From positions 1 to 56,537 of the forward strand of contig JAHQXB010000082.1 of the NCBI GenBank assembly GCA_029856435.1: DNA of 56,537 nucleotides, written 5' to 3'. Below the pieces are notes generated by a model. That model did no database searches, was not told where the DNA came from, and saw nothing but the letters and a program-made list of their open reading frames with translations. This DNA is from Candidatus Jordarchaeia archaeon. Lineage in GTDB: Archaea; Asgardarchaeota; Jordiarchaeia; Jordiarchaeales; Jordiarchaeaceae. The position numbers and the translations under genes were made by a program. Below, piece by piece: positions 51,802 to 54,807 of the stretch (position 1 is its first letter; each line of letters starts with the position of its first letter).

Positions 51802-51923
51802 GGGCCTGTAGTCTAGTGGATAGGGCGCCGGCCTCCGGAGTTTCCAAGAAATGGAGTCAGCCGGATACCAAGGGTTCAAAAATGTATTCCCTCTGGACTA
51901 TATTGAAACTCCCTTCAGGCCCG
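51802..51923 (+). tRNA. trnR: tRNA-Arg(CCG) with two introns (37/38: 51839-51858; 59/60: 51881-51909)
   Basis: Spliced: GGGCCTG TA GTCTAGTGGATAGGGC G CCGGC CTCCGGA GCCGG ATACC AAGGG TTCAAAT CCCTT CAGGCCC G; both junctions form BHB motifs. Confidence 0.92.
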
Positions 51924-51999: not shown

Positions 52000-53922
52000 A
52001 TGGGATATTTGAAGTGGGTAGATTTTATGCTCACAGAAGTGATAGAAAAAATCGTCGATGCTACGTATGATAGCCTTACACTATTGGGAGTTAAGGATAT
52101 TCCCAAAAAAGAAATCACGTTAAGCATAAGTCAACCTCCAGATCCCAAACTGGGAAACCTTTCATCCACAATAGCCTTCCGCGTTTCGAAAAGCCTCAAA
52201 AGTAAACCAATAGAAACCGCCCAGCAGTTAGTGGAAAAGCTGAAGGCGACAAAACTGCCCCTTGTTGGAAAAATAGAAGCTGCGCCCCCCGGCTACGTTA
52301 ACTTTTACTTCGACGATTCAGAACTCACAAAAACAGTAATAGACAGAGTATTTGCGGAGGGAGAAAACTATGGCAAATTACAGTTAGGGAAGGGAGAAAA
52401 AGTCTTAGTTGAACACACTGCTGTCAACCCCACCAAACCCCTACACATTGGCCACTTAAGAAACGCTGTCTTGGGCGATGTGGTTGCAAATCTATACAGG
52501 AACTGTGGGTGGAACGTAGAAGTCCAGAACTTCATTGATGATTTGGGAAGACAGGTTGGTGTACTGGTCTGGGCCTTTCTTAACAACATACACCTAGAAG
52601 TTCCAAGAGAGAAGGACACCAAACTAGACTTTTGGTATGGACTCATATATGCAAAAGCCGCCCAACTCTTAAAAGAAAAACCGGAACTAGAAAAGGAAGT
52701 AGACGAAGTAATGCGCAGCATGGAAACGGGGAACAACGAGATTGCCGATTTCAGCAGACACCTCTCAGAAATGTGCGTTGAATCAAACCTAGAAACAACA
52801 ACCAGAGCAAACATAGGATATAACCTACTGGTCTGGGAGAGCGACATTGCAAGGTCCAAAATATGGGAGGAAACCCTCAAAAAACTAGAAAAATCCGAAA
52901 ACTTCGTATGGGAAACAGAAGGAGAATACAAAGGCTGCTTTGTGGCAAAGTTCAGCAGAATGGAAGAATTCAAAGACAAGAAAAACCCAGACAAAGTGAT
53001 AATACGCTCCACTGGAGTACCCACCTACATAGCCCACGACATAGCCTACCAACTATGGAAATTTGGAAAACTAGAAACAAAAATGAAGTACCGCCCATGG
53101 AACACCCAATTCAACAAACAAATACTATGGACCACCGCCCCCACCCTAAGCAAAGATAGCGACGAATTTGCCAAGGCAAAAAAGGTAATCAACGTAATAG
53201 GATACGAGCAAGAATACCTGCAGCAAGCCCTCAAATCCAGCATTAAACTCCTCGGCTACCAAGAGGAAGCCGAAAACTCCATTCATCTCTCCTACAAACA
53301 CGTAAAACTAGCCGGCGAAAGATTTTCAGGAAGAGAAGGTAACTGGGTAGGATACCACGCAGACGCAGTAATCAACCAAACATTCATCCGAGCATACCTA
53401 CAAGTAAGCAAAAACCTACCAGACATTCCCGAACTTGAAAAAAGAGAATTAGCCGAAATAATAGCAGTAGGAGCAGTCAGATTCTGGCTGATAAAATTCA
53501 GCACCGAACAAACCATAATATTCGACTTCGACAAAGTAACAAACTTCGACGGAGAAACAGGACCCTACATACAATACGCAGTAGTCAGAGCCCGCAGCAT
53601 ACTAGAAAAAGCCGACAAAAAGCCCACACCAAAAATAAAACCCGAAAAACTAAGCGACGAAAAAGAAAAAACCCTAATACAACACATACTCCTATTCCCA
53701 CAAACAGTAAAAACAGCAACCGAACAACTAAAACCCCACATACTAGCAGAATACACCTACCAACTCGCCCTCAAATTCAGCAAATTCTACGAATCCCAAC
53801 CAGTTCTCACCGCACAAGACGAAGAAACAAAAAAAGCCCGACTCGCCCTAGTCCACGCAACAAAACAAACACTAGAAAACGCCCTAAACATACTAGGAAT
53901 ACAAATACCCTCAAAAATGTAA
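52000..53922 (+). CDS. argS: Arginine--tRNA ligase
   Basis: EHTAVNPTKPLHIGH, DDLGRQ, FSGREG, GETGPYIQY..R..SIL; the start may be ATG 52027. Confidence 0.97.
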   Translation: MGYLKWVDFMLTEVIEKIVDATYDSLTLLGVKDIPKKEITLSISQPPDPKLGNLSSTIAFRVSKSLKSKPIETAQQLVEKLKATKLPLVGKIEAAPPGYVNFYFDDSELTKTVIDRVFAEGENYGKLQLGKGEKVLVEHTAVNPTKPLHIGHLRNAVLGDVVANLYRNCGWNVEVQNFIDDLGRQVGVLVWAFLNNIHLEVPREKDTKLDFWYGLIYAKAAQLLKEKPELEKEVDEVMRSMETGNNEIADFSRHLSEMCVESNLETTTRANIGYNLLVWESDIARSKIWEETLKKLEKSENFVWETEGEYKGCFVAKFSRMEEFKDKKNPDKVIIRSTGVPTYIAHDIAYQLWKFGKLETKMKYRPWNTQFNKQILWTTAPTLSKDSDEFAKAKKVINVIGYEQEYLQQALKSSIKLLGYQEEAENSIHLSYKHVKLAGERFSGREGNWVGYHADAVINQTFIRAYLQVSKNLPDIPELEKRELAEIIAVGAVRFWLIKFSTEQTIIFDFDKVTNFDGETGPYIQYAVVRARSILEKADKKPTPKIKPEKLSDEKEKTLIQHILLFPQTVKTATEQLKPHILAEYTYQLALKFSKFYESQPVLTAQDEETKKARLALVHATKQTLENALNILGIQIPSKM

Positions 53923-54018
53923 ACAACAAAAAAGACTCCTTCTATTTTTATGAAATTAAATATGTGGCATCCACAAAATTGAAACCAGTGCTTTTCTGGC
54001 AATTGCTAAAAGAAGCTG

Positions 54019-54166
54019 TGGCGGGGCCCACGGGATTTGAAGTCGCGAATCCACCCTGGGTAAGGATAGATTTCCCGCGATCACAGGCTCCGCAGGCATA
54101 CGCACCAGACAATTATGGTTCTGCGCCCTTTCAGGTACCCATATATCCTGACTAGGCCAGGGCCCC
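54019..54166 (-). tRNA. trnR: tRNA-Arg(GCG) with three introns (D-loop: 54130-54144; 29/30: 54098-54120; 53/54: 54042-54073), CCA encoded
   Basis: Spliced: GGGGCCC TG GCCTAGTCAGGATAGGGC G CAGGC CTGCGGA GCCTG TGATC GCGGG TTCAAAT CCCGT GGGCCCC G CCA; each intron has a 4-bp central helix and 3-nt bulges. Confidence 0.9.
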
Positions 54167-54267
54167 ACCTAGTGCTAATCGTATTAGGAAGCTGAAATAT
54201 ATTAAACTTTGTGTAAAAAATGTGGGGTTTTTAAGATAACACAAGGAAAATATGTTGATACCCCTTT

Positions 54268-54807
54268 ATGAAACTAATTGTATATTTGCGGAGCGGAAGT
54301 ATTGTTATGCTGCGAAGCCAGCTTGTGGAAAAATTGTTGGAAGACGTGGAGAGAAATAAGGGCAACTGGAGTTCTAAGGGTGTGGCGATACTAGACATTA
54401 ACAACTCCCTTATCGGTTTAAAGGGAGAAGTTCCAAAAGAGTACCTTGACTACTACACCAAGTTTCCCATATCAGAAATGCACGAGGGGGATAGCATACA
54501 CAATAGGAACAGTTTCTTAATGAGGGTAACGGAAAAAACCGCCGTAGTGGTGGTACTGAGCGACGAGCACTTCGCGAGGCTAGCAGCAATAAACCTCCGG
54601 GGAAGAATCTCTGCCCTCCACGACTTCTATCTATTAGACTTGGATGGCGGGGACAGAGAGAGGTTACTAAGGGGCAAAATTATAAAGGGACAAACCTCAA
54701 TTCTGGATGGTGTGCTGGAAAAAATAAAAACTGGAGAAGTGGCAGCAGACATAGCAATAAACGAGTGGCTGAACACCCTCATAAACAAAATAAAAGCCAC
54801 CACCTAA
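54268..54807 (+). CDS. Roadblock-like domain protein, distant paralog of 44432-44812
   Basis: GVAILDINNSLI and SFLMRVTEKTAVVVV align with GLALITVGGNVI and SLLIIRVSEKMVLAI. Confidence 0.55.
   Translation: MKLIVYLRSGSIVMLRSQLVEKLLEDVERNKGNWSSKGVAILDINNSLIGLKGEVPKEYLDYYTKFPISEMHEGDSIHNRNSFLMRVTEKTAVVVVLSDEHFARLAAINLRGRISALHDFYLLDLDGGDRERLLRGKIIKGQTSILDGVLEKIKTGEVAADIAINEWLNTLINKIKATT

Follow-up and report, generated by a model that had tools for sequence, protein, structure and literature searches.

A tRNA-Arg(GCG) gene of a Jordarchaeia archaeon is interrupted by three BHB introns at non-canonical positions

The genome of Candidatus Jordarchaeia archaeon (assembly GCA_029856435.1) encodes a tRNA-Arg(GCG) that is split into four exons by three insertions. 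The gene spans 148 nt on the minus strand (54019-54166) of a 56,537-nt stretch of contig JAHQXB010000082.1, hereafter the window. With high confidence, we regard it as a functional single-copy Freyarchaeia/Jordarchaeia gene whose three BHB introns are cut by EndA and whose exons are joined by RtcB. The locus was proposed in an original prediction made from the letters of the DNA, which placed the gene at exactly these coordinates and left the strand unstated. It also held that removal of 15, 23 and 32 nt would leave a complete cloverleaf with CCA.

Four exons assemble into a class I tRNA

Splicing in silico, by deletion of 54144-54130 (15 nt), 54120-54098 (23 nt) and 54073-54042 (32 nt), leaves a 78-nt product that comprises a 75-nt tRNA-Arg(GCG) and the encoded CCA (54021-54019). 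ARAGORN calls this product tRNA-Arg(gcg) with a full cloverleaf and CCA, as had been claimed. It has an acceptor stem of 7 bp, a D-stem of 4 bp, and anticodon and T-stems of 5 bp each, the cloverleaf of a class I elongator tRNA. The gene begins with GGGGCCC and ends with GGGCCCC-G-CCA. The D-loop reads AGUCAGGAUA, the anticodon loop CU-GCG-GA and the T-loop UUCAAAU. U8, A14, G18 G19, A20, U33, the anticodon GCG and G37 are all in place, as are G53, U54 U55 C56, A58, C61 and G73 in the 3' half. Neither ARAGORN nor Rfam gives a match in the unspliced window, and ARAGORN makes no call on the precursor even with introns enabled (-i).

All exons and introns lie on the minus strand. Exon 1 (54145-54166) supplies the 5' strand of the acceptor stem, U8, the 5' strand of the D-stem and the D-loop to U20a, including G18 G19 A20. 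Intron 1 (54130-54144, 15 nt) follows in the D-loop. Exon 2 (54121-54129) carries A21, the 3' strand of the D-stem, G26 and positions 27-29 of the anticodon stem, and is followed by intron 2 (54098-54120, 23 nt). Exon 3 (54074-54097) contains positions 30-31, the anticodon loop, the 3' strand of the anticodon stem, the variable loop and the 5' strand of the T-stem (49-53). Intron 3 (54042-54073, 32 nt) separates it from exon 4 (54019-54041), which holds the T-loop, the 3' strands of the T- and acceptor stems, the discriminator G73 and CCA. In standard numbering the junctions are U20a|A21 in the D-loop, G29|G30 in the anticodon stem and G53|U54 at the border of T-stem and T-loop. All three positions (20a/21, 29/30 and 53/54) are non-canonical, in agreement with the original prediction.

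The gene is flanked by ORFs of 640 aa (52000-53922) and 179 aa (54268-54807). An A/T-rich, TATA-like box (54195-54210, minus strand) is read from the sequence upstream of the mature 5' end, at a distance of about 29-44 nt; it is likely an archaeal promoter. A box of this kind occurs at equal distance upstream in 10/10 orthologous loci. The pyrimidine/T-rich run directly after CCA (54008-54015, minus strand) is likely an archaeal terminator.

A palindromic element, CCTAATACGATTAGCAC (54172-54188, minus strand, -22 to -6 of the gene), sits downstream of the TATA-like box and ahead of the mature 5' end. It is nearly invariant in 9/9 same-genus orthologues, better conserved than the introns, and is not present upstream of the adjacent tRNA-Arg(CCG) gene. 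The element may act as a leader hairpin or as a site for a protein.

BHB motifs frame every insertion

BHB geometry was scored as a 4-bp central helix with a 3-nt bulge on each strand and a cut after the second bulge base. In each of the three insertions the central helix is 4/4 and the 3-nt bulges lie on opposing strands, and the helices and bulges are those that had been described for each motif.

The three motifs differ in their flanking helices. Intron 1 pairs CAGG of the exon with CCUG of the intron, has the bulges AU|A and AA|A and an inner helix of at most 2 bp (0-2 bp), and scores 4/1/2. This is a relaxed, bulge-helix-loop-like form. Intron 2 is a full, textbook hBHBh' motif (score 4/3/4) with the central helix GCGC/GCGU, an outer helix AGG/CCU (3 bp), an inner helix ACCA/UGGU (4 bp) and the bulges AG|A and AU|G. 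Intron 3 is of the HBh' type (score 4/0/10), with the central helix CGCG/CGCG, an inner helix of 9-10 bp, the bulges GG|A and AC|U, and no outer helix.

Randomly chosen sites of the window show a 4/4 central helix with a frequency of 2.3%, and one accompanied by a flanking helix of at least 2 bp with a frequency of 0.6%. A motif of the quality of intron 2 (outer helix 3 bp, inner helix 4 bp) has a frequency of 2.75e-5. A chance origin of the splice motifs is excluded.

Orthologues conserve the introns and compensate changes across them

Orthologues were recovered from each of the other five genomes in the genus, from a single sister-family genome and from six metagenome contigs. A pattern scan of metagenomes returned 47 matches, of which 41 were chance occurrences in protein genes and six were true orthologues. 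The comparative set comprises ten distinct loci including this gene, drawn from Jordarchaeia/Freyarchaeia genomes and metagenomes of two families. We refer to the present genome as G000, to the complete Freyarchaeia genome as G006, to the sister-family genome as G005 and to orthologous loci by L-numbers.

BHB-defined splicing in silico yields a 75-nt tRNA-Arg(gcg) at 10/10 distinct loci. The insertions in the D-loop and at 29/30 are kept in all nine other loci, and their lengths over the ten loci range from 10 to 15 nt and from 16 to 24 nt, respectively. The intron at 53/54 is kept in 8/9 orthologues and throughout the genus; the exception is G005. Where the sequence leaves a junction ambiguous, including the T-arm junctions of G005 and G007, exactly one option per junction gives a 4/4 central helix.

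In place of the 53/54 intron, G005 (L089:1501-1651) has a 30-nt intron at 50/51 and one of 17 nt at 58/59. A further genome, G007 (L088:1503-1672), has gained a fourth intron of 29 nt at 59/60 and has lost the encoded CCA. T-arm introns turn over at this locus, among 53/54, 50/51 plus 58/59, and 59/60. ARAGORN with introns enabled miscalls the three-intron Arg(GCG) genes of L095, L104, L110 and L115 as tRNA-Ile(gat) with a 47-nt intron. This misreading at four metagenome loci is an annotation pitfall for the lineage.

Covariation supports both the cloverleaf and the motifs. Cloverleaf pairs that span introns (21 pairs, 10 orthologues) reach 100% pairing over 208 cells, where slid partners give 21-58%. 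Changes on both sides are seen at four acceptor pairs across orthologues, and G005 compensates 28:42 and 29:41 across intron 2, from A-U/G-C to U-A/A-U. The BHB helices are 96% paired over the orthologues, compared with 22-43% in slid controls. Exon nucleotide 50 covaries with its partner in intron 3, from C-G to U-A in G006 and to U-G in L095 and L110, and a G-U pair of the intron 2 motif is replaced by G-C in G007. CAGG/CCUG of intron 1 is invariant in 10/10 loci, and the interior of this intron varies in sequence and in length (10-15 nt). Identity within the genus is 92% for exons and 76% for introns. Exon changes within the genus fall nearly all at paired stem positions and are mostly compensated, and exon 1 is either invariant or compensated among the orthologues.

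The genome has one Arg-GCG gene, and its Arg paralogues fix two intron boundaries

BLAST of the mature and precursor sequences against the genome found no second Arg-GCG gene; partial matches resolved to tRNA-Arg(CCG) and tRNA-Arg(TCG). A separate intronless copy alongside decay of this one had been named as a finding that would overturn the proposal, and the search instead returned a single locus with conserved exons. The paralogues, Arg(CCG) in the window and Arg(TCG) on contig 102, lack the insertions in the D-loop and at 29/30. The boundaries of these two introns are thus fixed independently of any splice motif.

The tRNA-Arg(CCG) gene (51802-51923, plus strand of the window) has introns of its own, 20 nt long at the canonical 37/38 position and 29 nt long at 59/60. 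In both, the central helix is 4/4 and the flanking helices are 5 bp long, and CCA is not encoded. The tRNA-Arg(TCG) gene (G000 contig C102:3353-3457, plus strand) carries a single T-loop insertion and an encoded CCA, and its D-arm and anticodon stem are uninterrupted.

Alternative readings of the locus

One could take the gene for a tRNA pseudogene in decay that has gathered insertions, and leave CGU/CGC to be read by another tRNA; its unspliced sequence indeed goes uncalled by standard finders. Decay is hard to reconcile with exons that are conserved, and stems that are compensated, over ten loci in two families, or with the conserved TATA-like box, T-run and CCA. Every insertion in all orthologues has a 4/4 central helix, this genome has no other Arg-GCG gene and the complete sister genome has only one. 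We give this reading next to no credence. It is also very doubtful that one or more insertions are retained as expanded loops in the mature RNA. The short D-loop insert would be the most plausible case, since its motif is relaxed and D-arm insertions are those most often left in the 'mature' tRNA by annotators (preprint 10.64898/2026.10.13.758758). However, CAGG/CCUG and the AA|A bulge stay at a fixed distance in 10/10 loci around an interior of 10-15 nt that varies freely, as a splice motif predicts, and G18 G19 would be buried in a helix if the D-loop were 25 nt long. The inserts at 29/30 and 53/54, if retained, would destroy the anticodon stem and the T-loop.

A third reading concerns the boundary of intron 1. 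Removal of CAGGAUAUAUGGGUA, six bases upstream, through a CCUA/UGGG helix would leave the D-loop AGUCCUGAAA; this 15-nt deletion has a 4/4 central helix in both G000 and G006, and its product passes ARAGORN. In that product, nevertheless, the universal G18 G19 and the context of A20 are missing, whereas the junction of the original prediction gives a D-loop (…GGAUA) that matches the paralogous Arg tRNAs. CCUA/UGGG is broken in G008 and G005, in contrast to the invariant CAGG/CCUG, and the published annotation of the orthologue places its 11-nt intron at the junction adopted here (PMC11291895 Suppl. Data 4). The upstream boundary is highly improbable, and we retain intron 1 at 20a/21. Shifting intron 3 upstream by nine bases likewise gives a product that ARAGORN accepts; this placement was rejected for a T-stem with two mismatches.

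The precursor would have to fold differently from the cloverleaf

The motifs of introns 2 and 3 are built from bases of the D-stem and T-stem, so the precursor must present folds alternative to the cloverleaf. The central helix of the intron 2 motif takes up G24, C25, G26 and C27 and its outer helix A21-G23, and the intron 3 motif uses C48-G51 on the T-stem side. Because the intron 2 motif and the D-stem use the same bases, they are mutually exclusive.

In modelled folding, the three BHBs do not all occur in the minimum-free-energy fold of the precursor. For this precursor the predicted fold forms the D-stem and the intron 1 and intron 3 motifs, and the intron 2 motif is missing from it; the model of the G006 precursor makes the opposite choice. 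When motifs are forced in the G000 model, any single one costs 1.7-4.8 kcal/mol and all three together about 10 kcal/mol. In eight orthologues the modelled penalties are 1-5 kcal/mol whatever the removal order, and the modelled penalty on the intron 2 motif falls to 1.0 kcal/mol, from 2.6, when intron 1 is removed. These forced-motif models give no support to an obligatory splicing order.

The original prediction noted that the 29/30 motif draws on D-arm bases and proposed that this implies refolding or ordered splicing. The use of D-arm bases holds, and so does refolding, as the motif excludes the D-stem; an obligatory order is not favoured by the models. One could go further and take the exclusivity of motif and stem (29/30 against the D-stem, 53/54 against the T-stem) as a folding checkpoint, with splicing through defined conformers and possibly intron 1 first, as its removal makes the intron 2 motif cheaper in the models. 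Such a checkpoint would keep the precursor out of the cloverleaf until EndA acts. We consider it unlikely.

The genome encodes EndA and RtcB

Two EndA paralogues are present, on contigs C104 (C104:1178-1756, 192 aa) and C64 (L002:1195-1788, 197 aa). Each has the domains PF02778 and PF01974, and they share 31% identity. The C104 protein best resembles 3P1Z_B, the catalytic alpha chain of EndA from Aeropyrum pernix (E 3e-45). In this protein the catalytic Tyr/His/Lys are retained, with the His aligned to the residue that is mutated in 3AJV_B. Its alignment with 3P1Z_B is gapless through the Crenarchaea-specific loop (...GQPLDVEKPR...), and Lys47 lies opposite K44. The C64 protein, the structural beta paralogue, has Thr at the position of the catalytic His and is without a 9-residue loop present in alpha. 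From these features the EndA of this genome is predicted to have (alpha-beta)2 architecture with the L1 loop, the broad-specificity type that accepts relaxed and ectopic motifs. Kaneta et al. 2018 (PMC5829648) report the L1 loop throughout TACK and Asgard archaea, and had mapped this EndA architecture to the Asgard group. The original prediction called for a splicing endonuclease with a broad substrate range and suggested classification of EndA as a check; the alpha and beta paralogues, and the specific loop with its Lys in alpha, are in keeping with it.

The catalytic EndA shares 96-98% identity with its counterparts in Jordarchaeia/Freyarchaeota MAGs; the one encoded by the complete Freyarchaeia chromosome CP147778.1 is 84% identical. 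These identities bear out the probable Asgard host that had been proposed from the letters.

An RtcB ligase is also encoded in the genome. The RtcB match (G000 contig C93:302-1636, minus strand) contains one in-frame TGA, which could be a selenocysteine, a short insertion or an assembly error.

We infer the following route to the mature tRNA. The minus strand would be transcribed into a precursor, about 150 nt long, that contains the three BHB-type introns. The precursor would adopt splice-competent folds alternative to the cloverleaf, which would form only after splicing. A heterotetramer-type (alpha-beta)2 EndA would cut the 3-nt bulges that flank each 4-bp central helix, and intron 1, of the relaxed helix-plus-bulge form, would need the specific-loop lysine of the catalytic subunit. 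Ligation of the four exons by RtcB would then complete the 75-nt tRNA, with CCA already in place. Among public sequencing runs, two labelled 'metatranscriptomic WGS' and one DNA run gave only long, unspliced, genomic-type contigs of relatives and no joints; in the one clear RNA-Seq run, no contig matched the tRNA-Arg(GCG) locus.

Interrupted tRNA genes are the rule in this genome

The genome assembly (3.54 Mb) is 97.8% complete, yet Rfam gives only 7 tRNA matches in it and ARAGORN 6 calls, two of which have implausibly long introns. We also ran a genome-wide survey that required an intact T-loop, CCA and an acceptor stem of 7 bp, with approximate resolution by BHB motifs plus ARAGORN. It returned 26 candidates with spans of 92-198 nt throughout, about 18 of which are plausible. 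Interrupted tRNA genes are the rule here.

Further candidates of 160-198 nt lie on the minus strand of G000 contigs at C27:3918-4079, C64:2609-2774, C115:625-790 and C176:18233-18430. To yield a cloverleaf they seem to require deletions of BHB type, two or three in number and mostly three, and one example is a candidate Phe(GAA) with deletions of 24, 31 and 28 nt; the resolution of these candidates is approximate.

These counts matter for annotation. Without intron-aware tools, a 98%-complete genome shows 6-7 tRNAs and no decoder of CGU/CGC.

Comparison with known systems

The original prediction considered three non-canonical introns notable for an Asgard genome. That judgement does not stand, as an orthologue with the same three introns has been tabulated (PMC11291895 Suppl. 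Data 4) and multi-intron genes are the norm of the lineage. In complete Atabeyarchaeia and Freyarchaeia genomes, 92-95% of tRNA genes have introns (Valentin-Alvarado et al. 2024, Nat Commun, PMC11291895). These introns are often non-canonical, and over half of the genes are multi-intron (PMC11291895). By our count from Suppl. Data 4 of that study, 12/38 tRNA genes of the complete Freyarchaeia genome have three or four introns; for this genome the same table lists only one Arg-GCG, with a two-intron Arg(CCG) about 2 kb away.

The Freyarchaeia SRVP tRNA-Arg(GCG) is tabulated at 1230205-1230066 (PMC11291895 Suppl. Data 4, row 37), with introns at 1230183-1230173, 1230163-1230141 and 1230116-1230089. 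It has three introns by both tRNAscan-SE and R2DT. Our G006 orthologue occupies C1:1230066-1230205, and its introns measure 11, 23 and 28 nt. Its coordinates are identical to those of row 37, and it is the same gene. The gene described here belongs to the same genus as the SRVP gene and shares with it the three intron positions, the 23-nt intron 2 and an Arg(CCG) with two introns about 2 kb away. It differs in intron 1 (15 versus 11 nt), in intron 3 (32 versus 28 nt), and in four acceptor pairs and one T-stem pair, all of which are compensated. For the tRNA-Arg(GCG) of Atabeyarchaeia-1 and -2, the same isoacceptor in another intron-rich Asgard class, only one intron is listed (PMC11291895 Suppl. 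Data 4).

A 2026 preprint surveyed 90 Asgard genomes (bioRxiv 10.64898/2026.10.13.758758). Freyrarchaeaceae and Jordiarchaeaceae have 2.0-2.4 insertions per tRNA gene, with up to five, and 97-98% of their genes are interrupted. Over the two studies, the interrupted share of tRNA genes in this lineage is 92-98%, at about 2.2-2.4 introns per gene. The insertions are enriched at BHB boundaries, and most genomes encode an (alpha-beta)2 EndA (10.64898/2026.10.13.758758). Our gene resembles this Jordiarchaeia/Atabeyarchaeia set, in which D-arm and T-arm positions are common and EndA is an (alpha-beta)2 enzyme; it shows no difference in kind and adds one more genome and locus.

Thermoproteales offer a more distant parallel. 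As cited in PMC11291895 from Sugahara et al. 2008, their tRNA genes have, like this one, up to three BHB introns, non-canonical positions and relaxed motifs. They depend on an (alpha-beta)2 EndA with the Crenarchaea-specific loop (PMC5829648), a dependence that is predicted here from the protein sequences. [quoted passage not shown]

The lineage phenotype, the EndA architecture and this very orthologue are thus already published, and the gene is a confirmed instance and not a new kind. It is another case of extreme tRNA-gene interruption, which bears on the spread of BHB introns and on the substrate range of Asgard EndA. To the published systems our analysis adds the covariation of the splice motifs, the turnover of T-arm introns and the conflict between the D-stem and the intron 2 motif.
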